Assembly: GCA_965223905.1 (NCBI GenBank)
Contig: CBDCXV010000002.1
Location: 448,001 to 512,000, forward strand
Origin: Candidatus Latescibacterota bacterium
GTDB lineage: Bacteria; Latescibacterota; UBA2968; UBA8231
Reading direction: 5' to 3'
Length of the DNA: 64,000 nt
The notes beneath the pieces are model-generated. The model was not told the DNA's origin. It was given only the letters and a program-made list of their open reading frames with translations, and searched no databases. The stretch's first letter is position 1, and each line of letters starts with the position of its first letter. The translations under genes and the position numbers were made by a program. Shown here in pieces: positions 36,348 to 64,000 of the stretch.

Positions 36348-36675
36348 GGTTGTCACCTTGCTGACCGTTCGGAAAGATTTCCCGCTTTCATCGACAGACT
36401 CAGTTCGACCGACGATGCGGAAGCGAGGCAACAGGCAGCGGTTGTCACCTTGCTGACCATTCGAGATGAATTCCCGCTTCGATCCACAGACTCAGTTCGA
36501 CCCCCGATGCGAAGAAAGACAGGGTAGGTACCCAGCGGGAAGGTTCCTCATGGACCCGGAGAGCATCCCTGCATCCGGGAAAACAGACGAGCAGGAAACC
36601 GAGGTATGGCCCCTGTTGCAGTCGTTGATTTCACCTGGGGTTTTTCACCTTGCTGACTTTTCGGAAGGATTCGCC
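36348..36675. repeat. Diverged direct repeats (two ~75-bp units with 92-bp period, plus one partial)
   Basis: GGTTGTCACCTTGCTGACC...ACAGACTCAGTTCGACC at 36348 and 36440; TCACCTTGCTGAC..TTCGGAA near 36645. Confidence 0.8.
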
Positions 36676-37690: not shown

Positions 37691-38218
37691 CCTTCGGGCC
37701 GTGGAATACCGAACTTGAGACCAGCGGCCCAAAAAAAATATTGTGATTCACGCTCCCATAGGGTTCCTTTCGGTTAGTGGGAAGGTGACCTGTCGGCGTT
37801 CACCGACAGATAGGGACTGGGAAGCGGTGGCGGAGCCTGACAGCTTCCCCCTTGCTCTGTGACTAACAAATATTATTGGCTGAATTAAAAAAGCGAATCG
37901 GTGGGAAACTTTATGGAGAGAGGCGGATAAGGGCGGCGAAAAACTTTAATTCCTGAGAGCAGGGGAGGGCGAGCAGGGAAGGGGAGAGGGCTAATCCCCT
38001 GAAAGGTCTATTTCTCGGGGGTCGGGGAAACGAAGTTGAGTTACGGCGGCGGTATCATTTCGGACAGTCGACGCGGAGATACGGGGGTCTCGGATAATCG
38101 AGAGGATGCTGCGCGACGCTTTCCGAGTGGCGAGAATCGGAGGACTGCGGCGACTGCTCGAAACTCAAGGCGAGTCCGCAATCCCCGGGGTAATCCGGGG
38201 CGATTCAGGAACTGCGGA

Positions 38219-38292
38219 TCGAGGTGCCGCTGAGGGATACGACTTGGTGGGGGGCTATTTCTGGACGGCAAGAGCTTCGGCGGCGAGGGTCT
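38219..38292. repeat. Diverged direct repeat, copy A (partner 41175-41246)
   Basis: TCGAGGTGCCGCTGA(A)GGGATACGA.TTGGTGG...AAGAGCT. Confidence 0.75.
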
Positions 38293-38309
38293 GTATCGCC
38301 TGGGAGTGG

Positions 38310-38491
38310 CACCCGCATCAGGGCCGCAACATGAACGGCATGACCCCGCTGCAGGCGTTCAAGAAAGGGCTTGACAACCAACTAGGCTCCGGGAAATTGG
38401 GAAATGGAGGAGAGCAGTGGAGAAAAACGCAGGCTGGAACAATTACTTCGAGGAAAAGGGGGGAGTGCTAGGTAGTTACCATTACTGCACA
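38310..38491 (+). mobile_element. IS481-family 3' remnant
   Basis: PHQGRNMNGMTPLQAF resembles IS481 transposase C-terminus; candidate end ...ATTACTGCACA. Confidence 0.55.
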
Positions 38492-38553
38492 TACCAGACC
38501 CGGAACCCGTCTAATGGATTTACCTTCTTTCTTGGATTGCCTTTTCTGTTTTG

Positions 38554-44304: not shown

Positions 44305-44438
44305 TCAGGAAAGTCGGCCTCGTCGTCTATGGGGACGGACGCGGTCAGGACGGTTGGGGCTTCAACCTCCACATCACGAGGTTGAGATCACCGGCGCCGG
44401 ACCCGGGGCGAAACTCCGGACCCGCACCCGGCGATCAG
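44305..44438 (-). pseudogene. RES toxin 3' remnant (diverged repeat of about 52080-52225)
   Basis: CGGTCAGGACGGTTGGGGCT...CCACATCACGAGGTTGAGATCA...GGCGAAACTCCGGACCCGCA shared; encodes RVRSFAPG...DLNLVMW. Confidence 0.8.
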
Positions 44439-44465
44439 ACCGACCACAACCCGCCCGGGCTCCGG

Positions 44466-47400: not shown

Positions 47401-47882
47401 AGGTTGACCTGCAGGATCGGCAACTCCTGGAAGTCGAACTCGAAGATCCGGGGCTCCTCGGCGTCGGCGGGGAGCTCGGCCTTGGCCAGGTCGACCTTCT
47501 CGCGCACCTGCCGCAGGGCATCGTTCAGGTCGACCTCGGTGCTGAACTCCGCCACCACGCTGGAGTAGCCCTCGACCGAGGTCGAGGTCAGCTCCTTCAG
47601 GTCGGGGATGGTCTTCAGATCCTGCTCCATCACCCGCGTCACCAGCGATTCCATGTCCTTCGGCGACACCCCCGGGTAGAAGGTGTTGACGGCGATCACG
47701 GGGATCTCGATCTCGGGGAAAGCCTCCTTGGGGACGCCGCGGTAGGCCAGGGTGCCGGCCAGGGCGATGATGGCGAACAGCATGAGCACGCTGGTGCCGT
47801 GACGCACCGCCCACGAGGTGACGGGCAGTTCGTTGAAGGCGTCGCCGCCGCCGGGACGATCGGTCGTTTTCGGTCCGTTCAC
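44466..47882 (-). CDS. RND efflux permease (AcrB/AcrD/AcrF family)
   Basis: 1138 aa; GMLVDNAIVIVEN, GIVVNNAIVL, RLRPVILT. Confidence 0.95.
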   Translation of the reverse strand: MNGPKTTDRPGGGDAFNELPVTSWAVRHGTSVLMLFAIIALAGTLAYRGVPKEAFPEIEIPVIAVNTFYPGVSPKDMESLVTRVMEQDLKTIPDLKELTSTSVEGYSSVVAEFSTEVDLNDALRQVREKVDLAKAELPADAEEPRIFEFDFQELPILQVNLSGEYGLVRLKQVGEELQDRLEQIPSVLRVDLRGGREREVQVDVSLPRLLYYGLTLKDVVETVRNENVNIPGGSIDVGERKFLVRVDGEIDDPLSIGDLVVDAPGGRPVYVRDVAEVDFGFAERQSYARLDGRPVVTLDVIKRTGKNIIETADAVHAEIARMEADFPPATVVKTTSDMSRDIRMMVNSLENNILSGLLLIVGVLLFFLGVRTSVFVGVAIPTSMLLSFLLLGLLGVTMNMVVLFSLILSLGMLVDNAIVIVENTYRYVEEGWERAAAARKATGEVALPVIASTLTTLAAFGPLLFWSGTVGEFMKYLPTTLIVTLSSSLFVALVIVPVLCSRWLRLEGERRPRLPRTGRLVLIALALLGAALLAAVNALTLALLIATALAATLSHRWILGPLASRFQSTGLPWLVDRYEGVLGWALGHRLTVVAASFSVLAAMAVAFSLFNSGIVFFPEDIPPRQVWVDVEAPVGTRVEFLDSIAGELELQVRGVEGYEDAESAVTTVGAGGSPLMGGTQGANDARLMVNFIDYQERRFDSFLTLAHMQERVGREIAGAEISVDKPVDGPPAGAPVNIEIAGKDPGVLKDLSDRMLQILRNAPVGERLSGLESDLDEARPELAVHVDRERAALFGLSTADVAGVVRTAVQGTEASQYRTGNDEYDIVVRLAEPWRKDLESLRDLVVENGPGEPIPLVSVARWTVGEGLGSIRRKDMDRMATISSDVRAGLNKNAVLAEVQQSLEPFVENELPPGYTVRYTGQQEDQAEAMQFLTTAFLAALGLIAFILVTQFNSVIKPLIILTSVIMSTAGVLFGLMVFRMPFGIIMTGVGVISLAGIVVNNAIVLVHYIDLLRRRDGLERQAALIRAGRTRLRPVILTAVTTALGLVPLAIGLNFDFFGLYGSLDPDLYWGGEQAAWWGPMAIAVIVGILFATFLTLVLVPVMYSLTDDMGRFFGRHFSAAGGGAETAGGGVPVPGG

Positions 47883-48991
47883 AGGCCGCGGCGGGGTACG
47901 ATGCGCAGGCGGTCGCCGTCCGCCACCTGCTCCTGGCCGACGACGATCAGGCGCTCCGCGGGCGACAGGCCGGAGGTGGCCACCACCTCGTCGCCGCCGG
48001 AGGCGCCGAGGGTGACGGGACGCGCCCGGGCGACGGGGCCGTCCACCCCGTCGGCGGCGACGAAGGCGGCGAAGCCCTCCTCGGTGCGCACCAGGGCCTG
48101 GTTCGGCACCACGATGGCCCCCGGGTGGACTTCGAGCACGAGCGTCACCTCGGCGACCATGGCCGGTTTGGCCCCGGCCACCGGACGTTCGAGGTCGAGC
48201 TCGACGGGGAAGGTGCGCTGGCCGCCGTCGACCGCGGCTCCCACGTAGGTCACGGTGGCATCGCAGGTGTCTTCGAGGGCGTCAAAGGCGACGACCGCCT
48301 TGTCTCCGGGGGTCACTTTCGCGGCGTAGCGCTCGGGAACGCCGGCGGTCACCTTCAGCGGCTCCAGGTCGAGGATGCGGGCCACTGGCTGGCCCGGGGA
48401 GACGACCGAGCCGACCTCGACGAGGCGGCGGTCGAGCACGCCGTCGAAGGGGGCGCGCACGACGGCGCGGCGCAGCCGCGCTTCGATCAGATCCAGCCGG
48501 GCCCGGGACTGATCGGCGACGTACCGGGCTTCGACGTACTCCTCTTCGGTGCCGATGCCGTCCTCTTCGTAGAGCCGCTTCCGGCGCCCCCACTGGTCCT
48601 CGTCCAGCGCCGCCCGGGCCTCGGCCTCGTCGCGCTGGGCGCGCAGCAGGTCGTCGTCCAGCCGCACCAGGGCCTGTCCGCGGCGCACCTTCTCTCCCTT
48701 GTCGGCCAGCACCGCGGCCACCGTGCCGCCCTCCTCGGCGGCCACCATCACCTCGCGGTCGGCGCGCACCGTGCCGGTCAGGCGGATCGCGTCGGTGAAG
48801 GGCCGCGGGGCCAGGGTCTCGACTTCGACGTTGACGACGCGGCGGTTGGCGTTCGCGGTCGCCTCCAAGGCAGCGGCCTCGTCGGCGGTCCCGGGCCCGT
48901 CTCCGCAGCCGCCGAGGGCGAGCAGGGCTCCGCCGGCCGCCGGCAGAAGGGCGCCAAGGACGCGGCGCCCCGATGGCAGTTGATTCCTCAC
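47879..48991 (-). CDS. RND periplasmic adaptor (MFP) lipoprotein
   Basis: Lipobox LGGC, VRAPFDG, RTFPVE, VPNQAL. Confidence 0.93.
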   Translation of the reverse strand: MRNQLPSGRRVLGALLPAAGGALLALGGCGDGPGTADEAAALEATANANRRVVNVEVETLAPRPFTDAIRLTGTVRADREVMVAAEEGGTVAAVLADKGEKVRRGQALVRLDDDLLRAQRDEAEARAALDEDQWGRRKRLYEEDGIGTEEEYVEARYVADQSRARLDLIEARLRRAVVRAPFDGVLDRRLVEVGSVVSPGQPVARILDLEPLKVTAGVPERYAAKVTPGDKAVVAFDALEDTCDATVTYVGAAVDGGQRTFPVELDLERPVAGAKPAMVAEVTLVLEVHPGAIVVPNQALVRTEEGFAAFVAADGVDGPVARARPVTLGASGGDEVVATSGLSPAERLIVVGQEQVADGDRLRIVPRRGL

Positions 48992-51063
48992 TCCGTCTCC
49001 TTCCGATCGGTTGCGGCCTCGCCGTCCACCGGGGGCACGCGCCCGACGGCGAGGTCGAGCCGGGCCCGGCCGGCGAGCCGGTCGTGGGCGGCCCGGGCCA
49101 TGTTGAACTCGCTCTGGCGCAGGGCGACCTCGGCGTCGGTCACCTCGAGCTGGCTGCCGAGACCCTCGCGGTAGCGGGCGCTGGCGATCTCGAACCCCCG
49201 CCGGGCCTGCGATACAGCGAGACGCTGGCCCTTCTCGCGCTGGGCGGCTTCGGCAAGCGCCGCCTCCAGGTCCTGGACCTGGACCGCGGCCTCGTCCCGG
49301 GCCATCTGCGCCCGGAGCTGCGCCTGGCGCAGGGCGGCCCGCCTCTGGTCGACGCGGGCGTCCCGCTGCAGGCCGGAGAACAGGGGCAGCTCCAGGGACA
49401 CGCCGGCGATCTTGCTAATGGCGCGATTGTCGGCGCTGCCGAAGAAGTCGAGCCTTCCGTTCTGCTGCGCCTGCACGTCCCAGGTGGCGAACAGGGAGAC
49501 CGTGGGCAGGTACTCCACCTGCTCGAGCCGCACCTGTTCCCGGCTCAGCTCGGCGGTCTGTTCGAACTGGCGCACGTCGGAGCGGTGAGCCAGCGCCGTC
49601 TGCACGAGATCCCCTGCAGGAAGCCCCGGACCGGACTCCGCGGCGGTGAGGGTTGCGCTCCCGGACAGCCGCAGTCGGCCGGGGTCGTCGAGGACCAGCT
49701 CCAGGCCCAGCCGTCGTCGCGCCGAGGCCCCGGCGTTGCGGGCGAGCAGCAGCTGCGGCTCGAGGTTGGCCAGCTCGACCTCGAGACGCAGCACGTCGTA
49801 ATCGGAAGCCAGGCCGGCCCGCGCCCGGCCGCGCGTCTCCTCGAGGGCCTTCCGCAGGCGCTCCAGGGACCGCTCGGTCAGGCGCACCTCCTCGCCGCGC
49901 AGCAGCAGCTCGTAGCACAGGAGGCGCACCCGCGTCGCCACCTGCTGGGAGCGGCCGCGGACCATCTCCTGCCGCAGCCGCCGGAAGTTGCCGGCGGCGC
50001 CGAGGCCGACAAGGCCTCTCGGGTCGAACAGGGGCTGCCGCAGGGTGAGGGCGCTCTGCCAGCTGTTGTCGGCCCCGAACTCCAGGGACAGGAACTCCCC
50101 CGGCCGGGCCGCGGGATTGAAGATCCTCGCCGGCATGAAGAAGACGGGCGGCGAGATGTTGCGGACGTAGCTGGCGGAGAAGTCGAGGCGCGGAAAGATC
50201 TCCCCCCGGGCCTCCGAAACCTGCTCCTCGGCCTCGGTCAGGAGCAGCCGCGCCTCGGCCAGCTCGCGGCTGCGGTCCAGGGCGAGGTCGACCACCTCGT
50301 CGATGCTCAGGAGCAGCTCCGCGCCCGGCGGTGCCGTGTCCGCGTCGGCGGTCGCCCCGCCCCAGGCCAGCAGGATCCAGGCCAGCCCGGTCGCCAAACC
50401 AGTGCGCAGGCGACCCCTGCCACCGGATGCGGCCGCCGCCTCTGCCCGGGAGAGGTCCTCGATAGCGCGGTCCATCTCGGCCTCGTAGCCGGGGGTGGCC
50501 ATGCCGGTGATGGTCCGCCGGCTCGAGGCTCCGTAGTGGCGGCGGAACTCCCCGGGGTCCATGTGCAGGCAGCCGCGCAGGTAGATGGAGATCAGGCCGT
50601 GGGCGTGGGCCCACAGGGTGACGGACACGTCGTCGGGATCGAGGGGCTGGAAGAGGCCGGCGTCGATGCACTCGCGCACGCGGTCGTTGAAGAAGCGCCC
50701 GACGCTGGCGACCTGCTCCGTCACCTGCTCGGGGAACTCCTCCGCCCCGAGGGTGTGGGAGGGGGTGTAGAGCATCTCGTAGTACTTCGGCTGATCGAGG
50801 GCGAAGTCGAGATAGGCCTGCCCCGCCAGGTACAGCCGCTGTGCTGGGGTACGCCCGGAGAGGGCTCCGTAGAGCCGCTCGCTCAGCCGCCGGTAGGCTT
50901 CGGCGACGACGTCGAGGAGCATCTCCTCGCGGCTGTGGTAGTGGCGGTAGAGGGCCGGCGCCGTAACCCCGAGATCGCGGGCCAGCCGGCGCATGGACAC
51001 GGCTTCGGCGCCGCCCTCGAGGTAGAGCTCGCAGGCTCTCGTGAGAATATCGGTGCGGTCCAT
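48988..51063 (-). CDS. In-frame fusion: TetR-family regulator + TolC-family outer-membrane protein
   Basis: N-term SMRRLARDLGVTAPALYRHY HTH; internal signal-like segment; TolC repeats (FPRLDFSASY, YLPTVSL, LELPLFSG, RYREGLGSQLEV). Confidence 0.85.
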   Translation of the reverse strand: MDRTDILTRACELYLEGGAEAVSMRRLARDLGVTAPALYRHYHSREEMLLDVVAEAYRRLSERLYGALSGRTPAQRLYLAGQAYLDFALDQPKYYEMLYTPSHTLGAEEFPEQVTEQVASVGRFFNDRVRECIDAGLFQPLDPDDVSVTLWAHAHGLISIYLRGCLHMDPGEFRRHYGASSRRTITGMATPGYEAEMDRAIEDLSRAEAAAASGGRGRLRTGLATGLAWILLAWGGATADADTAPPGAELLLSIDEVVDLALDRSRELAEARLLLTEAEEQVSEARGEIFPRLDFSASYVRNISPPVFFMPARIFNPAARPGEFLSLEFGADNSWQSALTLRQPLFDPRGLVGLGAAGNFRRLRQEMVRGRSQQVATRVRLLCYELLLRGEEVRLTERSLERLRKALEETRGRARAGLASDYDVLRLEVELANLEPQLLLARNAGASARRRLGLELVLDDPGRLRLSGSATLTAAESGPGLPAGDLVQTALAHRSDVRQFEQTAELSREQVRLEQVEYLPTVSLFATWDVQAQQNGRLDFFGSADNRAISKIAGVSLELPLFSGLQRDARVDQRRAALRQAQLRAQMARDEAAVQVQDLEAALAEAAQREKGQRLAVSQARRGFEIASARYREGLGSQLEVTDAEVALRQSEFNMARAAHDRLAGRARLDLAVGRVPPVDGEAATDRKETE

Positions 51064-51065
51064 GA

Positions 51066-51100
51066 GTTAACGATGTTAACCGATGTTCCCGGTTTGTCAA
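51066..51100 (-). promoter_or_regulatory. Sigma-70 promoter overlapped by palindromic TetR operator candidate
   Basis: Minus strand TTGACA-16 bp-TAACAT, 9 bp before ATG (near-leaderless); GTTAAC-GAT-GTTAAC at 51066-51080. Confidence 0.65.
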
Positions 51101-51455
51101 CAGGGACGGGGGAACATTCGGTGAACCATGTTATGGGACGGCCCGGAAGGGGGGGCTCCGCTTCAGGAGCAAGCGGCGGTGGGGAAACGGTATTCCAGGT
51201 TGCGGGGCGGGCGCTCTGAACTACGGGGGCTGAATTGAACTATGCCCGAATTGCCTGGCTCCGTGCGGTTTGGAGCCTCGTGCTCGTCTAGTCGCGGGGG
51301 CCGGCTCCAAAGTGGGACATGCAGATTGGACCGGCCCTCTCCGGGCTGATGTTTGCGTCAGTCGTTACGTGATCTGAACAGGACGTGAACGGCGAAAGCG
51401 CGTTGGTCTATAGTGGCTGTACTGCGAAACCCGGTTATAGCCTTTTCCAATCGAG

Positions 51456-52066: not shown

Positions 52067-52576
52067 TCAGGCTGGGTCTCCTGAGAGCCGACCTTCGTCG
52101 TCGATATGGACGACTCGGTCAGGACGGTTGGGGCTCCACTTCCACATCACGAGGTTGAGATCATTGGCGCCAGACCCGGCGGCGAAACTCCGGACCCGCA
52201 TGCCGGCATAACCTGCGGCGATCAGGCGGTCGGCCAGCGCCTGCGAGGCAGGGACCGACCCGGCCAGCATCTGCGCTTCCCAAGTGGGGCATGCGAGATC
52301 GGAATCGTCAACGCCCAAGGACCGGCACTGCTCTTCGTCCAGCGCATCGAAGACGGGCTCCGCATCGACCTCATAGGCGCAAAGGGTGATCGGCTGCAAT
52401 GTCCGGCCCAGCGGCTGCGCTTCGCGTACGGCAGTCAACAGCGCCAGCGAGGTATAGAGCGCGGGAATTCCACGCCGATTGAAGCGGCCGCCGTACCGGC
52501 GCGCGCCCTCGCCCGACAACGGCGTCCAGGACCACTGGGGATTGTGCGCCCGGTAAACCATCCCCCGGAATCGCAT
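52067..52576 (-). CDS. RES-domain toxin
   Basis: VYRAH, GGRFNRRG.PALYTS, AVREA, VRSFA, NLVMW. Confidence 0.92.
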   Translation of the reverse strand: MRFRGMVYRAHNPQWSWTPLSGEGARRYGGRFNRRGIPALYTSLALLTAVREAQPLGRTLQPITLCAYEVDAEPVFDALDEEQCRSLGVDDSDLACPTWEAQMLAGSVPASQALADRLIAAGYAGMRVRSFAAGSGANDLNLVMWKWSPNRPDRVVHIDDEGRLSGDPA

Positions 52577-52591
52577 CAGGACAGCAGGGAC

Positions 52592-52942
52592 TCAGGCATA
52601 GCCGCCTGCCATGATCCGGTCCAGGTAGGCACGCACTTGATCGGCCCTGCCTTCGCGCAGCAGCTGATCCGGGGTGGCGCCACCAAAGCCGGGCAGCGGC
52701 TCGGAGCGGAACCAGGCGTAGGCGGCTAGGGGGGATCCAGTTTCCTCTTCAACGCGGTTCAGGATCTCCAGCATCTGGCGCAGACGGATCTGCGTCTTGC
52801 GCGCCCGAACCCGGGATGCGCGCGTGAATGCGTCCTTTCCGAGGCCCAACGTGCCGGCGATCTCCGACTTGGTGGTGCGCAGGGCGTCGGCGACGAGCGT
52901 CGGTGAAAACACCTGATCCTCGACGAATTCATGGAATCGCAT
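52592..52942 (-). CDS. Xre/MbcA/ParS antitoxin
   Basis: AWFRSEPLPGFGGATPDQLL; upstream of RES. Confidence 0.9.
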   Translation of the reverse strand: MRFHEFVEDQVFSPTLVADALRTTKSEIAGTLGLGKDAFTRASRVRARKTQIRLRQMLEILNRVEEETGSPLAAYAWFRSEPLPGFGGATPDQLLREGRADQVRAYLDRIMAGGYA

Positions 52943-53107: not shown

Positions 53108-53166
53108 AGGCCGACGAGCCATTTGACCGGAACCTGGCCCGGCTCGCAAACACAGGAGGTTCCTGA
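53108..53166 (+). pseudogene. RelE/HigB-like toxin 3' stub
   Basis: ADEPFDRNLARLANTGGS-stop overlapping antitoxin ATG (TGATG). Confidence 0.5.
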
Positions 53167-53519
53167 TGCCTTTGAACGTGGAAGAAAAGATCGCGAGGCT
53201 CGATCCTGCCCGGCGCCGCAAGGTCGAGGATCGGGCGGCAGAGCTCATTGCCGAGGAGATGAGCCTGCGCCAGCTTCGCAAGGCCCGGCAGCTCACCCAG
53301 GCGCACGTCGCGCACCAACTGGGGATCTCGCAGGACGGGGTCTCCCGGCTCGAGCAACGAAGTGATCTATTGCTTTCGACGTTGCGCAAGACGGTGGAAG
53401 CCATGGGCGGCAGCCTGTCGCTCATCGCCAGATTCCCGGATCGTCCGCCGGTCGAGCTGTCCGGCATCGCCGACGGAAGCCCTCCAGCGGCGACCTCCGC
53501 GGCCAAGCCCAATGCCTGA
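53166..53519 (+). CDS. XRE-family antitoxin (orphan)
   Basis: LRQLRKARQLTQ...SQDGVSRLEQRSDLLLSTLR. Confidence 0.88.
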   Translation: MPLNVEEKIARLDPARRRKVEDRAAELIAEEMSLRQLRKARQLTQAHVAHQLGISQDGVSRLEQRSDLLLSTLRKTVEAMGGSLSLIARFPDRPPVELSGIADGSPPAATSAAKPNA

Positions 53520-53581: not shown

Positions 53582-54601
53582 GTGAAGACGGTTGCATTCT
53601 TCAACAACAAGGGAGGAGTGGGCCAGACCTCTCTCGTCTACCATCTGGCGTGGATGTTCGCCGAGCGGGGCCGCAGGGTCATTGCGGCAGACCTGGACCC
53701 TCAGGCCAATCTGAGCGGAATGTTCCTGACCGAAGAAACGTTGGAGGAGATGTCGAACGATCCGGCCAGGAAGACGATCAACGACGACATCGCGCCGCTC
53801 TTCGACGGGACCGGAGACATCGCCTCCGCTCCCCACGTCGAAGAGATCGGCGAAAGGATCGGGCTGCTCACCGGCGATCTCGGCCTGTCCGGACAGGAGG
53901 ATGACCTTTCGAGTCAATGGCCCCTCTGCCTGGACCGAAATCCACGAGCCTTCCGCGTAACCACGGCGTTCGCCCGACTCATTTGCCGCGCCGGAACAGG
54001 GTTCGACGCCGACCTCGCTCTTGTGGACGTGGCACCCAATCTGGGCGCCCTGAACCGGGCCTCTCTGGTGGCGTGCGACCACGTGATCGTTCCACTTGCG
54101 CCCGATCTGTTCTCCCTGCAGGGACTGCGCAACGTCGGGCCGACCCTGAGGATATGGCGGGAAGCCTGGTCCGAGCGGCGTGCAAAGAAGCCGGAAGACC
54201 TGGAGTTGGATCTGCCGCCAGGATCGATGCAGCCGGCCGGCTACGTCATCGTGCGGCACTCGATCAGGAACTACCGGCCGGCCAAGACCTTCGCGCGGAT
54301 TGAAGAGATCCCCGGGGAGTATCGGCAATCCGTCGTGCAGGCGGGTGACTGCAGCGCTGACTCCGCCTCCGTCGACCCCCACCTCCTCGCCCACCTGAAA
54401 GACTACCGCGCCCTGATGCCGCTGGCTCAGGAGGCGAGCAAACCCATGTTCATGCTGGTATCCGCCGACGGAGCCATCGGCGGATACCAGACGGCGGTCC
54501 AGGATTGCTACCGCGAGTTCAGGGACCTGGCACTGAAGATCGAAGACCGCATCGGTGTGGCCGATGACAGCGGAGACCCACGCGGTCCTTCGGCAGGATG
54601 A
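53582..54601 (+). CDS. ParA/AAA_31 family ATPase with variant Walker A
   Basis: FFNNKGGVGQTS, DLDPQANL, DVAPNLG, PDLFSLQGL. Confidence 0.88.
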   Translation: MKTVAFFNNKGGVGQTSLVYHLAWMFAERGRRVIAADLDPQANLSGMFLTEETLEEMSNDPARKTINDDIAPLFDGTGDIASAPHVEEIGERIGLLTGDLGLSGQEDDLSSQWPLCLDRNPRAFRVTTAFARLICRAGTGFDADLALVDVAPNLGALNRASLVACDHVIVPLAPDLFSLQGLRNVGPTLRIWREAWSERRAKKPEDLELDLPPGSMQPAGYVIVRHSIRNYRPAKTFARIEEIPGEYRQSVVQAGDCSADSASVDPHLLAHLKDYRALMPLAQEASKPMFMLVSADGAIGGYQTAVQDCYREFRDLALKIEDRIGVADDSGDPRGPSAG

Positions 54602-54626: not shown

Positions 54627-54677
54627 CGCCAGATTCCCAGATCGTCCGCCAGTCGAACTGTCCGGCATCGCCGACGG
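54627..54677 (+). repeat. 51-bp direct repeat of XRE gene 3' end (53426-53476)
   Basis: 48/51 identity by manual alignment. Confidence 0.9.
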
Positions 54678-54723: not shown

Positions 54724-54981
54724 ATGACCGCAACTAACAGAATGTCGCCGGTGCATCCCGGGGAGATCCTGCGGGACGAGATGGACGAGCGCGACCTTTC
54801 CGCCAACGCACTGGCCCAGGCGCTCGACATCCCCGCAAACCGGATCACCGCCATCCTCAACGGGCAGCGGGGTGTCACGCATGACACCGCACGCCGACTG
54901 TCCCGGTACTTCGGGACCACGCCAGAACTCTGGCTCAATCTGCAGAAGACCTGGGAGCTCCGCCGCGCCGAGATCGGGTGA
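54724..54981 (+). CDS. higA: HigA-family antitoxin (orphan)
   Basis: PVHPGEIL, RLSRYFGTTPELWLNLQ. Confidence 0.88.
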   Translation: MTATNRMSPVHPGEILRDEMDERDLSANALAQALDIPANRITAILNGQRGVTHDTARRLSRYFGTTPELWLNLQKTWELRRAEIG

Positions 54982-55009
54982 GGTACCTGCCCTGACGGGA
55001 CATCTTCCA

Positions 55010-56908
<1,899 letters not shown>

Positions 56909-56990
56909 GGCGTGCTGTCCGGAAGTCCGGCCCGGTGGCGGGGCACCCATCGCGTCCTACGGGATGTCCAATGTTGATCTTCGAAATAAG

Positions 56991-57015
56991 AATACATACT
57001 GTTTCAGTACGTATT
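56991..57015. promoter_or_regulatory. Inverted repeat upstream of AbrB-PIN operon (operator candidate)
   Basis: AATACATACTG-TTT-CAGTACGTATT (10/11), followed by AGGAGG. Confidence 0.6.
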
Positions 57016-57029
57016 GAAAGGAGGGTGAC

Positions 57030-57251
57030 ATGGAAGCTACACTCTCTCAGAGAGGGCAGGTGACCATTCCGAAGCCCTGCCGCGACAAGCTCGGGCTCAA
57101 GAAGGGCACGGTCCTGAATTTCGAGGCCAGGGACGGGATCCTCGTGGTGCGCAAGGTTCAACCTGAGGACGTGTTCCGCAAGTGGAGGGGTCGCGGCCGG
57201 CTTCCGGCCGGGCTTGGAGTCGACGAATACCTCGACGAAGTACGGGGATGA
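57030..57251 (+). CDS. AbrB/MazE/SpoVT-family antitoxin
   Basis: RGQVTIPK..RDKLGL..G. Confidence 0.9.
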   Translation: MEATLSQRGQVTIPKPCRDKLGLKKGTVLNFEARDGILVVRKVQPEDVFRKWRGRGRLPAGLGVDEYLDEVRG

Positions 57252-57661
57252 TTTCGGCCGTCGACTCATCCGTCATTCTGGACGTCGTCACTGCCGACCC
57301 CCGTCACGCCGATGAGTCCGAAGGGGTCCTGCTCCGCGCGTCACGGGAAGGGCAGGTCATCGCCTGTGAATGCGTCCTCGCCGAGATCCATCCGGCATTC
57401 GACGGTCCGGACTCCTTCGAGGAGTTCCTCACCGACTGGCAGGTGGAGTTCGTGCCATCCTCACGGCAGAGCGCGATCCTGGCCGGCCGCCACTTCGCCG
57501 CATATCTGCAACGGGGAGGCGCACGCCGTCGAATCGTGGCCGACTTCCTGATCGGCGCCCACGCGCAGACGCTGGCCGACCGCCTCGTGGCGCGCGACCG
57601 GGGATACCTGCGGGACTATTTCTCCGGGCTCAAGTTGCTCGATCCCTCCTCACCGGGTTGA
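57248..57661 (+). CDS. vapC: PIN-domain (VapC) toxin
   Basis: VDSSVILD, VLAE, ADFLIGAHA, RDRG; ATGA overlap. Confidence 0.88.
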   Translation: MISAVDSSVILDVVTADPRHADESEGVLLRASREGQVIACECVLAEIHPAFDGPDSFEEFLTDWQVEFVPSSRQSAILAGRHFAAYLQRGGARRRIVADFLIGAHAQTLADRLVARDRGYLRDYFSGLKLLDPSSPG

Positions 57662-57675
57662 CCCCATCGCCGGTC

Positions 57676-58502
<827 letters not shown>

Positions 58503-58513
<11 letters not shown>

Positions 58514-59789
58514 AGGCTCAACAGGAACTTCGGAAATGCCGCCCGGATGGCGGATCAGCCCTGTAGGGGAGGTCGTTGGGGTTCATAAGGAACAGGTTAC
58601 GCCTGAATTCCATCCAACCAGGCAATTCCATCACTTCTCGATTCCTGCCTACGACGAAAACAATGGACCTGTGATGGAGTCAGGTCGAGATATCGGCAGC
58701 AATAAGACCACGGTCCCACCCAATTCAGTACTCGTCTCAAAACTCAACCCACGAATACCAAGGGTGTGGATGCCGGAAATTGAAGAACGGCACCATGCCA
58801 TTGCCTCAACGGAATTCCTGGTCCTTCGACCAACGCATATTGATCGTGGCTTCTTGAAGCACCTGTTCCTCTCTCCACTCATGTCCTCGGAACTAGTGGC
58901 GCGAGCAACCGGGACAACTCGTAGCCATCAGAGGGTTCGTGCTCCTGATGTCCTTGCCATCCCAGTAGGTCTTCCTCCCCTTCCCGAGCAGCGAAAAATT
59001 GCCGCAATCCTCTCCTCAGTGGACGACGCCATCGAGAAGACCCAGGCGGTCATCGACCAGGTGCAGGTCGCCAAGCGCGGCCTGATGCAGGAGCTGCTCA
59101 CGCGGGGCCTGCCGGGCGGGCACACGCGGTTCAAGCAAACGGAGATCGGTGCAATACCCGTATGCTGGCAACTTGCATTGCTTGCCGAAGTGCTTGACGG
59201 AATAGATGCAGGATGGAGCCCTAAGTGTGAAGGGCGACCAGCAGCACTTAGCGAGTGGGGGGTGCTAAAGGTTAGCAGTATTTCGAGTGGACACTTCAAG
59301 CCTCACGAGAACAAGGTTCTCGCTGAGGGGTTGGAAACACGTGTTCAGCTTGAAGTAATGGAGGGCGATGTCTTGGTTGCTCGCGCCAGTGGTGTGCTGG
59401 GCCTTGTTGGACGTTCTGCGTTTGTGCACGGAACCAGACCGAGACTAATGCTGTCCGATAAGACACTGCGCCTGAAAGCCAAGGAATCTGTATTGCGGCC
59501 AATGTTTCTCAGTCTTCTCTTGGAAGATCCGCGAGTTCGGCGACAAATCCTTATGCGGACGACCGGCAGTCACATGAGAAATATTTCGCAACAGGCGCTC
59601 CGACGAGTGCTGGTTCCGGTTCCGTCATTAGATGAGCAAGAACGCATTGAAGTACTGGAAGTTTACGCCGGGACCCGATTGGAAGAGGAGAGGAAATCCC
59701 AAGATCAGTTGGAAGCAGTCAAAAGGACACTCATGTCCGTCCTCCTCACCGGCGAGCTCCGGCTCACCCCTGACACCGAAGTCGCATGA
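58503..59789 (+). CDS. hsdS: Type I R-M specificity subunit
   Basis: Two TRDs, PPLPEQRKIAAIL, KRGLMQELLT, VPSLDEQERI, LMSVLLTGELR. Confidence 0.93.
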
Positions 59790-59828
59790 CCCCCAAGGCA
59801 ACCGGCTGGGCCGAGCTGCACCTCGCGG
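59786..59828 (+). repeat. hsdR 5' stub, copy 1 (43 bp)
   Basis: 38/43 to 63759-63801; ATGA overlap with hsdS stop. Confidence 0.9.
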
Positions 59829-59933
59829 GGTGCGGCTCGATCAGGCAGGCGCCGTGGAGACGGGTAGTGTATAGCGCAAAATGAGGCAGGGTGGGACAGA
59901 AACCCCAATGGCTGAGACAGGGGAGAGACAGAA

Positions 59934-60821
59934 ATAGCGTTTTCGACAGCGACAAAAGAGGCCGTGCGTAAGAGTTCATGGTTCGCATGTTGCCTGTGCA
60001 GAAAAATCAGCATGGGACTCGAAGTGCATCACATCGTGCCCAAAGCAGAGGGCGGGTCTGACTCAGAGGACAATGCCGCACCGTTGTGTCCGACTTGCCA
60101 CAGGATTTTCGGAGGTAACCCTGAACTGCGCTCTCGAATACGCGGTATGCGGAATTGGTGGTACAAGGCCTGCGAGTGTTTGTTCGCAGAGCGCGAACCT
60201 GGGCAGGTGTTCCGTTCGATTCACGAACTCTTCTCTACAGATGAGCTGGAACGATTGACGATCCACAACCCAACCTATGTACTCGGTACGGCCGGTGAAG
60301 GACTCGGGTCAACAAGGTTCTCTTTTCATGGGGAGGAGTATGTTCATCCGTTGATCGTCAAGGAACTACTCGGGTGGATTTCGGACAGCAACGAGACAGT
60401 TGTTGGGGTTGATTTGAAATCGGCCCACCGAAGCAACAGGTTTTCCGGAGACTTTTCGGTGCAGGACGATGAAGCGAGTACAATGGTTGAATGGCGGGAC
60501 GAGAGAGAGTCGTTCAAGTACAGGCATGTGGCAACCACGCCGTCTGGCATAGAGATAGTAGAGTGCTACGATTGGGGAGGAGGCAGTGGGGTATTCGGGA
60601 CGGTCGCCTTGTTCTGCCTTGAACTAGATCGAGCAGCAGAAGCTGTTGGTGGATCACTCTCCTCCCGTGATCGTCATGTACTTAAAATCCTTGGCCAGTT
60701 CGGGCTTGGTGATCGGTATAGCGGCGACATTCAGTATGGGAACGGCGTGCTTGAGGTTGGGCCGGATCGGGGATGGTTCAGAAGGGGAAGGGAAGCGGCA
60801 TGGCGACTACCCGTCCTGTAA
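59934..60821 (+). CDS. HNH endonuclease with unknown C-terminal domain
   Basis: CCLC, EVHHIVP, GGSDSEDNAAPLCPTCH; likely ancestral start is ATA at 59934, first usable GTG at 59964. Confidence 0.85.
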   Translation: MAFSTATKEAVRKSSWFACCLCRKISMGLEVHHIVPKAEGGSDSEDNAAPLCPTCHRIFGGNPELRSRIRGMRNWWYKACECLFAEREPGQVFRSIHELFSTDELERLTIHNPTYVLGTAGEGLGSTRFSFHGEEYVHPLIVKELLGWISDSNETVVGVDLKSAHRSNRFSGDFSVQDDEASTMVEWRDERESFKYRHVATTPSGIEIVECYDWGGGSGVFGTVALFCLELDRAAEAVGGSLSSRDRHVLKILGQFGLGDRYSGDIQYGNGVLEVGPDRGWFRRGREAAWRLPVL

Positions 60822-60938
60822 TTTGAGTCAGATGGCAGTGAGGGGTTGTTGTTCTGGTGGCTGCTTTCCTTATCCGAGACGCGGCGTACGAAATTGCTAC
60901 CCGCCATCCGGTACCAGGCAGAACTCAGCCGATATCAA

Positions 60939-60993
60939 GCGATCGATGAGTCGGCTGGCGACCCTCGACCGTTGATGAAGACGTTTCGGAATG
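60939..60993 (+). pseudogene. Addiction-module antidote internal remnant
   Basis: AIDESAGDPRPLMKTFRN matches AIEESDGDPRLLMKAFRN at 63258. Confidence 0.75.
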
Positions 60994-61002
60994 GGGGCCT
61001 TC

Positions 61003-61204
61003 GGGACCTTCGAGCCGAGCCAGACTCAGCCGCAACTGGAACGGCTTGAGCAACCGGTTCAACGTGGCCTGCGTCGGGTTGTGCCGCGGGTGAATCGCAC
61101 GCAGGACCTTCGGACCCGCCATCCCCGCTCGCTCGCCGAACTCCTTGACGCCTCATTGCCCGAATCACCTTTCCAAGGGCGGTCTGGACCGGCAGTTCCT
61201 CATC
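61003..61204 (-). pseudogene. Frameshifted 3' copy of the antitoxin at 61716-62009
   Basis: About 200-bp direct repeat of 61719-61919 with an indel. Confidence 0.85.
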
Positions 61205-61454
61205 AGCACGGACCAACCGACCAGGGATCGATGACCTTGATTCGCGTGTCCTCGAAATCCCGCACGTTGCGCGTCACCAGGGCAGCGTCCCGGGAGCGGC
61301 ATATGGCCGCGATCTGGCAGTCGGCCTCGCCGATCGGCCCGCCCGCGCGGCGGCGGTCGGCCGCGATCTCCGCGTAGGCTCGGTCGGCGGCGCTGTCGAA
61401 CGGCAGAATCCGTTCTCTGAAGCCTTGTTCGAGCCACCGGTTCATGGCAAACAT
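61203..61454 (-). pseudogene. VapC/FitB PIN toxin lacking N-terminus
   Basis: ILPFD, DCQIAAIC, LVTRNVRDF, VIDPW; catalytic N-terminal DTN motif absent. Confidence 0.85.
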
Positions 61455-61463
61455 GCCGGCCGC

Positions 61464-61709
61464 TCAGGAGAAATCCGGAGGCTTGCGCATCGGGCCGCGC
61501 GGGGGGAGTTCGAGCTCCACGCCGCCAAGGGACGCGAAGCACTCGCGGGTGAACTTCGCCAGGTCGGGGGGACCGGTCCGCCCATCATTGACAGCGTCAC
61601 GCAGGATGATGCGCACCTCTTCCTCCATCGAACGGTGATTCTCGGCGGCGCGCACGCGCAGTCGCGTCCTCACGTCGTCGTCGAGATTGCGGATCGTGAT
61701 GGTCGCCAT
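61464..61709 (-). CDS. FitA-like ribbon-helix-helix antitoxin
   Basis: MATITIRNLDD...LRVRAAENHRSMEEEVRIIL. Confidence 0.9.
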   Translation of the reverse strand: MATITIRNLDDDVRTRLRVRAAENHRSMEEEVRIILRDAVNDGRTGPPDLAKFTRECFASLGGVELELPPRGPMRKPPDFS

Positions 61710-61715
61710 TGGCCG

Positions 61716-62009
61716 TTAGGGACCTTCGAGCCGAGCCAGACTCAGCCGTAGCTGAAACCGCTTGAGCAACCGGTTCAACGTGGCCTGTGTCGGGTTGTGC
61801 CGCGGGTGAATCGCACGCAAGACGTTCGGACCCGCCATCCCCGCGCGCTCGCCGAACTCCTTGACGCCCATGGCCCGAATCACCTTTCCAAGGGCGGTCT
61901 GGACCGGCAGTCCCTCATCCATGGCTGCAAGAAGGAATTCGCGTGCGAACTCCGGGTCGCGCAGGTCCTGCGCCAGTCCTTCGTTCCAATCTCGACTGCG
62001 TCGTGCCAT
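61716..62009 (-). CDS. HTH antitoxin, addiction-module antidote-like (orphan)
   Basis: LRDPEFAREFL, NPTQATLNRLL; RBS GAGGA. Confidence 0.8.
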   Translation of the reverse strand: MARRSRDWNEGLAQDLRDPEFAREFLLAAMDEGLPVQTALGKVIRAMGVKEFGERAGMAGPNVLRAIHPRHNPTQATLNRLLKRFQLRLSLARLEGP

Positions 62010-62061
62010 GTCACGTCCTCTCCGGATAGTCTCGCCAATAGTCCTGAGCGCGGCGGATCCG

Positions 62062-62154
62062 GCAACCGGAACCCCCGGATTGGGGACGGTAACGAAGATC
62101 GCTTCGGCCTGCGGGGTGACGCTGCGGTTCGTACAGCGGGGATCCATGAGCTGA
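62062..62154 (+). pseudogene. Addiction-module antidote 3' remnant
   Basis: LGTVTKIASACGVTLRFVQRGS matches end of 63186-63485. Confidence 0.8.
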
Positions 62155-62188
62155 AAGCCGTCTCAGTTACTCCTGAACTCGAACCCCC

Positions 62189-62231
62189 ATGACCTGCAAG
62201 ACCACCGGCTGGGACGAGCTGCACCTCGCGG
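62189..62231 (+). repeat. hsdR 5' stub, copy 2 (43 bp), preceded by hsdS-like tip
   Basis: 37/43 to 63759-63801; preceded by VTPELEPP-stop resembling hsdS end LTPDTEVA-stop. Confidence 0.9.
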
Positions 62232-62271
62232 ACGGGCAAGCGACGGGACAGACTTGAGCCAATAATTGGCT

Positions 62272-62439
62272 TTATTTGGTTACGGTTCGGTAAGTTTTGC
62301 TTTTTGCGTCCCACTCATAATGACCAATGGTTGGAACGAGCCTTTCATTCTTTCCCCTGGAGACTTCTCTCGATCTTCGCTCTACTGGCGCGCCTTCCTG
62401 CTGCACAGTCCTTTTGGATGGTTCTCGTTTTCTTGCCAT
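62272..62439 (-). CDS. Small basic protein (55 aa)
   Basis: AAGGAGG RBS 7 bp before ATG; MARKREPSKRTVQQEGAPVERRSREV... Confidence 0.5.
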   Translation of the reverse strand: MARKREPSKRTVQQEGAPVERRSREVSRGKNERLVPTIGHYEWDAKSKTYRTVTK

Positions 62440-63070
62440 AATTCTTCCTCCTTAACGTACCATTCCGATCAGTCGCTTTTCACAAAAGGTTCAATATTTT
62501 GGCCGAGCATATGCCTACAGAAAGGCCTGGCAGATTTTGCCCAAAAACAACATTGGGCCAATAAGCGGTTATCTGTTTTATAAAGTTGCTCCAGTTCATT
62601 GATTTGGGTGGACCTGATTACTCTTCAAGGTGTAGAGGCCGCCCTGCGGGCGATACCGGCACGTTTGGCGGTCGTTAGCCTTGCAGGACGGGCTTTAGCC
62701 AACCATGTCGCCGAGCTATTCGGGCGAGATCTGACAGTTTGCGGAGACTCTTCGATTTTCGCCCGTGACGACCTTTGCGGCGTGTATGGAGCAGCCGATG
62801 ACGTCGGCTGGCCGTTTCTGGCCTTGGGGCTCTGCAGGGATGGCCGCCCCCCCACCGGGTTTGACGGGGGGCCTAAAATAAAGAGTTCCCAAAGGCAGAT
62901 CACCGATTTTTATCGCGGTTCCCCTCTCATTGTCAAGGCTTTTGCGTTGCCATGTCAAGGGCGTATGAGCAAATTTTTCGCAAAATCCGTGCCATAGCCA
63001 GTCGGATTGGATTTCAAATGGAGATAACTACCGGTGATCGCAAGATCCGACGCGAATGCTACTTGACGTA

Positions 63071-63090
63071 GTGTAGCCAAACGGCTACAC
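63071..63090. promoter_or_regulatory. Perfect inverted repeat (TA operator candidate) next to TTGACG
   Basis: GTGTAGCC-AAAC-GGCTACAC. Confidence 0.7.
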
Positions 63091-63092
63091 AA

Positions 63093-63183
63093 TTGTATGG
63101 GATCGGGATCGTCCACTAAGTTGCCGCTGACGGTACGATCCCGTTCGATGCATGGTTCCGAAGACGTACAGACAGGAGAAAAG
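63093..63183 (+). pseudogene. Addiction-module killer (RelE/HigB-like) 5' stub
   Basis: IVH-stop-VAADGTIPFDAWFRRRTDRR, then deletion to antidote start. Confidence 0.6.
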
Positions 63184-63185
63184 GC

Positions 63186-63485
63186 ATGTCCGTCAGAGCT
63201 CATGATGCCAGCGAATACCTCCGGACCCCGGAGGATGTCGCGGCGTACCTCAACGCCGCGATCGAGGAATCGGATGGCGACCCGCGCCTCTTGATGAAGG
63301 CGTTTCGGAACGTCGCCGCGGCCCAGGGTGGTGTTTCCGCCATGGCGCGGAGAGCCGAGGTAGACCGCGTGGCTCTCTCCCGCGGCTTGTCGGGAAACCG
63401 GGACCCCCGATTGGGGACGGTGACGAAGATCGCCGCGGCCTGCGGCGTGACCCTGCGGTTCGAGCAGCGTGGATCCACGGGTTGA
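63186..63485 (+). CDS. Addiction-module antidote protein (HI1420-like HTH)
   Basis: DASEYLRTPEDVAAYLNAA, GNRDPRLGTVTKI. Confidence 0.9.
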   Translation: MSVRAHDASEYLRTPEDVAAYLNAAIEESDGDPRLLMKAFRNVAAAQGGVSAMARRAEVDRVALSRGLSGNRDPRLGTVTKIAAACGVTLRFEQRGSTG

Positions 63486-63508
63486 ACCTTATATGAGGAG
63501 ACCAAGAC

Positions 63509-63736
63509 ATGGCGATATCAATTAAACTTCCTGCTGACGCAGAGCAACGGCTTGAATTTCTGGCGCAGCAAACCGGGCGCACCAAGGATGTCTGCCTGCG
63601 CGAGACTATCGCACGGGGTCTTGATGACATGGAGGACTACTATCTCGGTGCCGAAGTCCTGAAGCGCGTCCGAGACGGTGGGGAGCAGGTATATTCCGCT
63701 GCCGAGGTGAAGAAGTCGCTTTGTCTGGACGATTGA
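63509..63736 (+). CDS. CopG/RelB-like RHH antitoxin (orphan)
   Basis: SIKLP..EQRLEFLAQQTGRTK...LDDMEDYY; RBS GAGGAG; no RelE follows. Confidence 0.82.
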   Translation: MAISIKLPADAEQRLEFLAQQTGRTKDVCLRETIARGLDDMEDYYLGAEVLKRVRDGGEQVYSAAEVKKSLCLDD

Positions 63737-63758
63737 GTACACCTAGACTGCCACCCCC

Positions 63759-64000
63759 ATGACCCCCAAAGCCACCGGCTGGAACGAGCTCCACCTCGCG
63801 GAAGACCCCGCCGTCGACCTGCTGCAATCCCTCGGCTACACCTACGTCCCCCCCGAAGACCTCGACCGCGAACGCGCCAGCTTCAAGGAGCCCATCCTGA
63901 CCGGCCGCCTCGCCATGGCCCTCAAACGCCTGAACCCCTGGCTTTCCGGGCCCAACCTCACCAACGCCGTAAGGGCGGTCACGCAGGTCCCAGCGGCCAG
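63759..64000 (+). CDS. hsdR: Type I R-M restriction subunit, 5' part (runs off window)
   Basis: MTPKATGWNELHLAEDPAVDLLQSLGYTY...LKRLNPWL typical HsdR N-terminus. Confidence 0.85.
   Translation, partial: MTPKATGWNELHLAEDPAVDLLQSLGYTYVPPEDLDRERASFKEPILTGRLAMALKRLNPWLSGPNLTNAVRAVTQVPAA

Follow-up and report, generated by a model that had tools for sequence, protein, structure and literature searches.

A type I restriction-modification operon of a Latescibacterota bacterium is the subject of this work; it lies in a window of 64,000 nucleotides, by which we mean the whole stretch of DNA analysed (G000:C2:448001-512000, G000 being a 7,924,944-base metagenome-assembled genome and C2 its 659-kb contig). 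At window positions 55010-64000, the operon comprises hsdM, a MazE-PIN cassette, a second copy of the hsdM 3' end, hsdS, about 4 kb of cargo and hsdR, and the first 43 nt of hsdR are present three times, at 59786, 62189 and 63759. An earlier note on this DNA had read the three copies as the att-site geometry of integrative elements inserted at a fixed nucleotide, each restoring the 5' end of hsdR. Our results confirm all that the note had observed, bear out that cargo has accumulated in tandem at the hsdS-hsdR junction, each block being bounded by a copy of the hsdR start, and support a cassette-accretion site in a looser, recombination-driven sense. An att-site mechanism is not supported, and we lean, with moderate confidence, towards reading the three hsdR starts as scars left when alleles of the operon recombined unequally or through a homologous anchor.

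Three hsdR starts and the breakpoints of related loci

Copy 3 (63759-63801) opens the true hsdR, which runs on beyond the window (63759..64000, plus strand; L001:6759-9773) and encodes a complete HsdR of 1004 aa with HSDR_N, SWI2_SNF2 and T1RH-like_C domains. Compared with it, copy 1 (59786..59828, 43 nt, plus strand) differs at 5 of 43 positions and copy 2 (62189..62231, 43-44 nt, plus strand) at 6 of 43, and these two open dead-end frames of 32 and 22 codons, respectively. A 28-nt degenerate core matched exactly these three places, a number of matches reached in 0 of 100 shuffles, and a fuzzy search of all 7,924,944 bases allowing up to 9 substitutions retrieved only these three hsdR-start copies, in agreement with the earlier count. 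As had also been described, copies 1 and 2 lose similarity to hsdR at the same point, after CACCTCGCGG, and the sequence following them resembles the hsdR continuation no better than shuffled sequence does (p = 0.24 and 0.22). A decayed hsdR continuation in the flanks, which would make the breakpoints illusory, was considered and found unsupported, six of seven tests being not significant and that of L003_B, the inner remnant of locus L003, giving p = 0.014.

The stop codon of hsdS (58503..59789, plus strand; Pfam Methylase_S, 50.9 bits in 2 stretches) overlaps the ATG of copy 1 (ATGA). An hsdS-like tip of 33 nt (62156..62188, plus strand) precedes copy 2 with the same overlap, as previously claimed, and is identical to the hsdS end of locus L002 at 18 of 25 positions (p = 0.02); the hsdS/hsdR repeat family of 65 nt has three members in the window. 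Copies 1 and 2 carry a CTG codon typical of alleles from another phylum, and their 14 hsdR codons are too few for a synonymous versus non-synonymous test. The two blocks of cargo that they delimit (59829-62155 and 62232-63758) hold an HNH protein, antitoxins and the same antidote family near their right ends, again as first described.

An orthologue of this hsdR was found in 9 of 76 genomes of the order. With 24 loci added from the species collection and 4 from a metagenome scan, and after removal of duplicates and of L032 and L037 (both without an hsdR start), the comparison comprised 31 distinct loci. Over the first 200 residues, the HsdR protein is 79-92% identical across metagenome-assembled genomes of Latescibacterota, Vicinamibacterales and Gammaproteobacteria; this identity across three phyla points to an operon that moves between them and was recently transferred. 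Empty sites, in which hsdS directly overlaps hsdR and which the earlier note had proposed to look for, occur in 7 of the 31 loci (L004, L005, L007, L008, L019, L035 and L036), and cargo with at least one hsdR-start remnant in 14. Two loci have a doubtful remnant (L023, L031), two have cargo and their own hsdS stop with no remnant (L009, L017), and the remaining six showed no hsdS end within the fetched upstream DNA. Two remnants together with a true start are present in four loci, namely the window, L003, L018 and L022.

Junctions were classed by the sequence that follows the remnant. Class A, with a break at about nt 60 and DEDD exonuclease cargo, comprises L011, L026, L027, L013 and L014; class B, with a break at nt 43, comprises copy 1 of the window, L002, L006 and L003_B; and class C, with a break at nt 75, comprises L018 and L022 and displays an 18-nt exact hsdS-tip match before hsdR, judged by eye. 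Other junctions break at about nt 100 (L016, L025) and at nt 120 or later (L012, L015). Breakpoints vary between classes yet stay constant within a class across phyla, and since the flank is shared within a class, each class represents one old event carried along with the operon. Homologous loci thus display breakpoints scattered across junction classes instead of the fixed insertion nucleotide once proposed, a pattern that the earlier note had itself named as refuting its reading, and a coincident crossover position is found only in copies 1 and 2 of the window. That of copy 1 is inherited rather than the product of a second hit at the site, because its flank from 59829 onward is homologous to the post-remnant flank in L002, L006 and L003_B, and it shares with class B the downstream order of antidote fragment, minus-strand helix-turn-helix (HTH) gene, antidote, RelB-like gene and hsdR.

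Concerning copy 2, L002 joins the minus-strand HTH gene directly to a lower-GC stretch, with no copy 2 between them, as if a stacked ancestor had lost about 229 bp; in L006, part of this lower-GC stretch stands just before the antidote fragment, and both blocks of the window end in the same antidote gene. For these reasons, copy 2 is quite probably the left junction of a second, related allele, joined 3 nt past the antidote stop of the first block (62155/62156). A joining of pieces from different alleles is indicated by L018, where the class-C remnant follows a PIN gene and the true hsdR follows an hsdS-like end.

The earlier note had seen no integrase, and this holds well beyond the window: there is no Phage_integrase (PF00589) or Resolvase (PF00239) match on the whole of contig C2, with 19 and 1 matches, respectively, on other contigs, and no recombinase was detected among the open reading frames (ORFs) of the 13 kb downstream of hsdR or in the cassettes examined, the sole exception being an IS transposase in L014. 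Furthermore, codons 1-30 of hsdR show no excess synonymous conservation among 30 orthologues (identity 0.67-0.73, versus 0.59-0.88 in later segments of the gene).

Gene-end repeats at hsdM and at other genes

A cassette set between an intact gene and a partial duplicate of that gene's end is an arrangement found at four places within 11 kb, with repeats of 51-832 nt, a range that does not fit one att site. At hsdM, the complete gene (55010..56908, plus strand; N6_Mtase 343 bits and HsdM_N 115 bits by Pfam on the ORF 54872-56908), which presumably starts at 55010, the first ATG of the conserved part, is followed by a MazE/AbrB-type antitoxin gene (57030-57251, plus strand; Pfam MazE_antitoxin, 37.6 bits), a PIN toxin gene (about 57248-57661, plus strand; Pfam PIN, 24.4 bits for a cut-off of 23.6) and a second copy of the last ~830 nt of hsdM (57665..58513, plus strand), an open frame whose end overlaps the hsdS start. 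The MazE-PIN cassette (57030..57661), an adjacent intact toxin and antitoxin with the PIN protein just over the cut-off, therefore sits between two hsdM 3' copies. In a genome self-comparison, this direct repeat extended over 832 nt at 94.7% identity, reaching 96% between 56088-56387 and 57693-57992. Among 276 codons, the copies differ by 29 synonymous and 18 non-synonymous codon differences, and both frames are open; both must therefore have evolved as working genes before joining, and these codon differences show that the hsdM repeat unites two functional alleles, as opposed to one in-place duplicate left to decay.

Within the same 11 kb, a 210-nt repeat surrounds a FitA-PIN' pair (PIN' being a truncated PIN gene), and the 65-nt hsdS/hsdR repeat occurs three times. 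A 51-nt direct repeat (94%; 53426-53476 and 54627-54677) flanks a ParA-like ATPase gene (53582-54601) and corresponds to the 3' end of an HTH gene (53166-53519), repeated at the start of the next HTH gene. L003 and L006 have the 5' part of the antidote gene duplicated around the minus-strand module. Taken across these cases, repeat length is 43 to 165 nt at hsdR, 51, 210 and 832 nt elsewhere in the window, and 72 to 125 nt at the other loci described below.

On contig C1 of the same genome (G000:C1:1265246-1266528, minus strand; L053), an unrelated hsdR (32% identical) has a copy of about 115 nt of its own start some 890 nt upstream, with the ATG changed to ATT; the two copies enclose a weak-Phd/PIN pair, whose PIN stop codon overlaps the hsdR ATG. 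A genome-wide repeat screen, crude in design, reduced 1871 raw pairs to 34 isolated ones (at least 79% identity, 40-300 nt, gap of 400-1500, few neighbouring repeats). Toxin-antitoxin (TA) domains were found in the gap ORFs of 5 of 20 pairs scanned with Pfam, a proportion not to be taken as a rate, the 20 having been picked by eye for small ORFs. Apart from the C1 hsdR, there are four such TA loci (L054, L055, L058 and L061, on contigs C1 and C10 of G000), in which HicB, MazE-PIN, Phd-YoeB and MazE-PIN_3 cassettes are flanked by repeats of 72-125 nt representing the 5' or 3' end of a neighbouring gene, which stays whole. The repeat around MazE-PIN_3 (L061) measures 125 nt at 99.2% identity. 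The same arrangement is also seen in genome G002. Genes for LigD and Ku lie side by side on contig C9 (G000:C9:93496-95412), so end joining is available to the organism.

Proposed origin of the scars

From what is shown of the locus, namely its anatomy, its comparison with relatives and the derivation of the hsdM repeat from two alleles, we infer a recombination pathway that would begin with an operon family circulating among Latescibacterota, Vicinamibacterales and Gammaproteobacteria. DNA of an incoming allele would find an anchor in hsdR, hsdM or a cassette gene and undergo homologous recombination on that side, its other side joining illegitimately or out of register; a second joint falling within the anchor would leave part of the gene end duplicated beyond the new cargo, with the gene itself intact. 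Given the ATGA overlap of hsdS and hsdR, both genes would survive only where the junction was duplicated, which would explain why scars gather at hsdS/hsdR and stay short. The resulting tip-plus-start repeats could then serve as short homologies for later unequal recombination, by which cassettes would be stacked, swapped or removed, and such unequal exchange would account for the empty, single and double states seen among the loci. Under this proposal, copy 1 would be the inherited left junction of an old class-B cassette, copy 2 most likely the corresponding junction of a second, related allele, and most toxins of the window would since have been lost from the cargo, whose toxin-antitoxin modules and defence-type genes are of a sort already found embedded in type I operons.

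Several observations weigh against this proposal. Copies 1 and 2 have escaped decay, having no indels and an ATG still in place, whereas the class-B remnants of L002, L006 and L003 are decayed, and the proposal explains this intactness only by later exchange with functional alleles. Their breakpoints are no more than 1 nt apart, and a class-B ancestry of copy 2 is uncertain: the 27 nt that flank it are weakly similar to the flank of L003_B (p = 0.03) and show no significant similarity to the three other class-B flanks, and 167 other genomes of the phylum yielded no second junction of the copy-2 type. For the true hsdR of the window (copy 3), a preceding hsdS-tip remnant was not significant and is not claimed; statistical support for such a remnant was obtained in L003 only (19/25, p < 0.01). 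Genome G001 carries a TA cassette homologous to a repeat-flanked one at another locus, with no detectable repeats. Listed with these points, although neutral on whether cassettes move independently, is the identity between phyla of the DEDD exonuclease cargo (63-82%), no higher than that of hsdR (80-86%).

The explanation nearest to the earlier one supposes site-specific cassettes with no integrase of their own, inserted by a trans-acting recombinase at one set position within the hsdR start, each bringing a replacement hsdS tip and hsdR start, and stacking in tandem. It would account for copies 1 and 2 ending within 1 nt with flanks that are not demonstrably related, for tip-like sequence before copy 2 and perhaps copy 3, for the coexistence of empty and occupied sites and for the four loci with two remnants; the Phage_integrase and Resolvase matches on other contigs could act in trans, which also counts against recombination between alleles. 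Nevertheless, we consider it rather unlikely, given breakpoints that differ by junction class, the inheritance of the copy 1 breakpoint with its flank, an hsdR start with no extra nucleotide conservation, the lack of a recombinase on C2 or in the examined cassettes other than the L014 transposase, the recurrence of the geometry with 51-, 210- and 832-nt repeats at other genes, and an hsdM repeat derived from two functional alleles. Homing is highly improbable as an alternative: the HNH protein of the first cassette would cut a cassette-free hsdR near nt 43, and break repair would copy the cassette in. The HNH gene does start 135 nt after copy 1, and, of 9 loci fetched with its homologues, 2 have type I genes alongside; yet it is absent from the class-B loci L002, L003 and L006, which share the junction, an intact target remains in the true hsdR of the same locus, and the process would not create a duplication.

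Duplication of the target itself must also be weighed. Staggered double-strand breaks, with capture by end joining and overhang fill-in, could duplicate 40-800 nt de novo, only boundary-spanning events surviving and homologous exchange spreading them. The adjacent Ku and LigD genes, the 125-nt repeat around MazE-PIN_3, which looks recently duplicated, and the fact that the repeats examined span a gene end with the gene left whole are all in keeping with this; we nonetheless judge it unlikely, as the synonymous excess over the 832 nt of hsdM fits two alleles and not one decayed duplicate, and no empty site for the 99.2% case was recovered in 30 relatives. Tandem type I operons whittled by deletion to one working set plus stubs could be suspected from the 832-nt hsdM stub, the hsdS tip and the hsdR stubs gathered within one 8-kb stretch, and from the presence of at least five further full-length hsdR genes elsewhere in the genome. 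Every hsdR stub, however, measures at most 165 nt out of about 3000 and hsdS tips at most about 50 nt, which random deletion would not give, and no long intermediate stub exists in any of the 31 loci, so that this origin appears very unlikely.

Finally, the source genome has 5.1% contamination and numerous related sequences occur in the same runs, circumstances in which an assembler could have joined several strains, as the earlier note had cautioned. Logan contigs of run X3 cover 59087-61026, 61991-63257 and 63567-63848 with 0 differences, the copy-2 junction is contained in contigs from runs X5 and X6, which belong to two other studies, and each of the three junctions is matched by independently assembled public contigs, although no single contig among the listed pieces holds the whole interval. 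Contig joints 59797>62207 and 59769>62205 carry foreign letters between their sides and, as judged from contigs only, may come from empty-site relatives or other organisms; they weigh neither for nor against excision. With a like architecture in relatives, assembler chimerism is unlikely, and an artefact as the explanation of the three copies is scarcely credible.

Cargo, neighbouring genes and relation to known systems

The first block contains the HNH protein, a 5' antidote fragment, a minus-strand antidote gene interrupted by the FitA/PIN' pair, and a 3' fragment of a plus-strand antidote gene. The HNH-domain protein (285 aa; 59964..60821, plus strand; Pfam HNH, 43.3 bits) has a C-terminal region of ~230 aa that matches no family, and gave weak, motif-level matches only in PADLOC and NCBIfam. 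Homologues exist in 11 of 167 other genomes of the phylum; the two fetched loci with adjoining type I genes (L079 and L081, from other genera) have them beside an hsdS-like gene and an hsdR-like C-terminus. The 5' fragment of a PF21716-type antidote gene (60939..60991, plus strand) is 85% identical to 63258-63310, and its junction with the minus-strand HTH gene recurs in L003 and L006. The minus-strand module consists of a partial 3' copy of the antidote gene (60995..61204; 210 nt, 93.8% identical to 61711-61919), a truncated PIN toxin gene with the C-terminal half only (61203..61454; PIN 28.6 bits, profile positions 66-117 of 120), a FitA-like antitoxin gene (61464..61709; Pfam FitA-like_RHH, 71.3 bits) and the HTH antidote gene (61716..62009; TIGR02684 31.4 bits and PF21716 24.2 bits, both below cut-off). 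At the position matching the lost toxin of this antidote, L006 has extra sequence, and in L024 a Gp49-like frame (21.7 bits, below the 23.9 cut-off) precedes the matching antidote. The 3' fragment of the plus-strand antidote gene (62060..62155, plus strand) keeps its stop and is 81-83% identical to 63391-63486.

The second block comprises a lower-GC stretch, a complete antidote gene with a palindromic operator-like site, and a RelB-like antitoxin gene. The lower-GC stretch (62259..63056; 45-57% GC) had no family match, its ORFs giving none in Pfam, PADLOC or NCBIfam, and is 88% identical to L002 over 62259-62572; Rfam gave no match over 56800-64000 at E up to 0.1. Just past the end of the copy-2 frame, a terminator-like palindrome with a T-run (62256..62272, plus strand) is not significant alone, and the promoter and terminator scan was at chance (5 terminator-like sites versus 4.1 expected). 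The antidote gene is preceded by a TTGACG box and a perfect palindrome of 8+8 (63063..63090, plus strand), both conserved in L003 and L006 and likely to be its promoter and operator. The complete HTH antidote (63186..63485, plus strand; PF21716 52.3 bits, TIGR02684 59.1 bits) and the RelB-like ribbon-helix-helix antitoxin (63509..63736, plus strand; NF048017 84.6 bits) have no toxin partner. A RelB-like gene directly precedes hsdR in five Latescibacterota loci, namely the window and, as seen from a matching gene end, L002, L003, L006 and L009, and it is speculation that this gene and the box with its palindrome could now control hsdR.

All toxins between hsdS and hsdR are thus absent or truncated, no intact adjacent toxin-antitoxin pair lies there, and this cargo is largely a graveyard of antitoxins. 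Among relatives, cargo recurs in the form of a DEDD exonuclease with BRCT (PADLOC candidate PDC-S48), Phd-PIN pairs directly before hsdR, RHH/ParE pairs, and pairs of a Gp49-like protein (below cut-off) with an antidote; a TrlF/Ppl-like ATPase with a Schlafen-like protein (SLFN_AlbA_2), a nucleotidyltransferase and the L014 transposase were also found. A role of the cargo in defence is hinted at by family membership only, through the weak HNH match in the window and PDC-S48/DEDDh, the TrlF/Ppl-like ATPase and SLFN_AlbA_2 in relatives. The label of defence cargo given earlier applies only in part, the window having mostly orphan antitoxins between hsdS and hsdR, with a single truncated toxin and a single HNH protein.

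Following hsdR and a YgjP-like gene, a SIR2_2-domain protein, a 247-aa protein with no match and a HATPase_c_3 protein are encoded in a row on the minus strand (L001:10580-13580, on C2), and may represent another defence system. Further upstream in the window lie three long plus-strand ORFs with no Pfam match (1288, 349 and 748 aa; within 44382-51219), a RES/Xre toxin-antitoxin pair downstream of them (52067-52942, minus strand), and IS1595- and DDE_5-type transposase genes (36631-39900).

Tandem accretion at a gene-end att site is represented by the composite islands of the staphylococcal cassette chromosome (SCC) at rlmH/orfX and by cis-mobilizable elements (CIMEs), which lack an integrase and lie next to integrative and conjugative elements; their repeats are short, occupy one fixed position and are made by dedicated recombinases. 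Our locus resembles them in that gene-end direct repeats bound successive blocks, some with no recombinase, and the gene is left intact, and differs in a repeat length and breakpoint that vary by event and in the lack of a linked recombinase. In Campbell-type insertion-duplication, a single crossover via a gene-end fragment leaves a whole gene and a truncated copy around the insert; like homology-facilitated illegitimate recombination, it is known as a laboratory outcome only. A whole gene and a truncated copy flank the insert in the same manner at hsdR, hsdM, the antidote and the other genes described here. Homology-facilitated illegitimate recombination, which combines one homologous with one non-homologous joint and leaves the same product, is defined in PMC3240628; among the papers listed in a literature search, no description was found of either process as an entry route into restriction operons.

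The tvr locus of Streptococcus pneumoniae is a type I locus with direct repeats and toxin-antitoxin homologues, rearranged by excision and reintegration, in which hsdS pieces are shuffled by its own recombinase via circles guided by two repeat types (PMC6265443). Here, in contrast, there is neither a recombinase nor a set of hsdS fragments, and it is the ends of hsdR and hsdM that are repeated. Genes embedded in type I operons include PrrC in EcoprrI (PMC3874165, PMC12707154) and TgvAB in the type I operon of Vibrio cholerae VPI-2 (PMC11411939), and have been surveyed under the principle of "guilt by embedding" (bioRxiv 10.1101/2024.01.29.577857). Our operon shares with these systems complete hsdM, hsdS and hsdR genes on one strand with other genes between them, and, in relatives, cargo of defence-candidate families. 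It is distinguished by stacked cassettes, each bounded by a partial copy of the end of a neighbouring gene, and by window cargo consisting mostly of orphan antitoxins rather than working systems. As far as their available parts show, the prior papers treat what is embedded and not its entry route; the main text of the bioRxiv survey contains neither the term "hsdR" nor the term "recombination". Embedding in type I operons is thus known, and the gene-end scars appear to be undescribed, no description of such remnants beside embedded cassettes having been found among the papers listed in the literature search, although an earlier one may exist.

The embedded position in type I operons has already been used to find new defence genes, and the scar described here is shared by loci of three phyla and is also met at another restriction gene, unrelated to this one, and around further toxin-antitoxin cassettes of the genome. 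If it results from homology-anchored recombination between alleles, it would offer a simple, testable account of how cargo is gained and lost with no mobile-element enzyme, and a sequence signature for counting such events in genome collections. As a broader and more doubtful possibility, toxin-antitoxin and defence cassettes might enter operons by a general integrase-free route at gene boundaries, duplicating tens to hundreds of bases so that no gene breaks, with the leftover copies acting as portable homology arms for stacking, swapping and transfer between phyla. Such a route, if true, would explain both the embedding of defence genes and the growth of defence islands in the absence of mobile-element genes.

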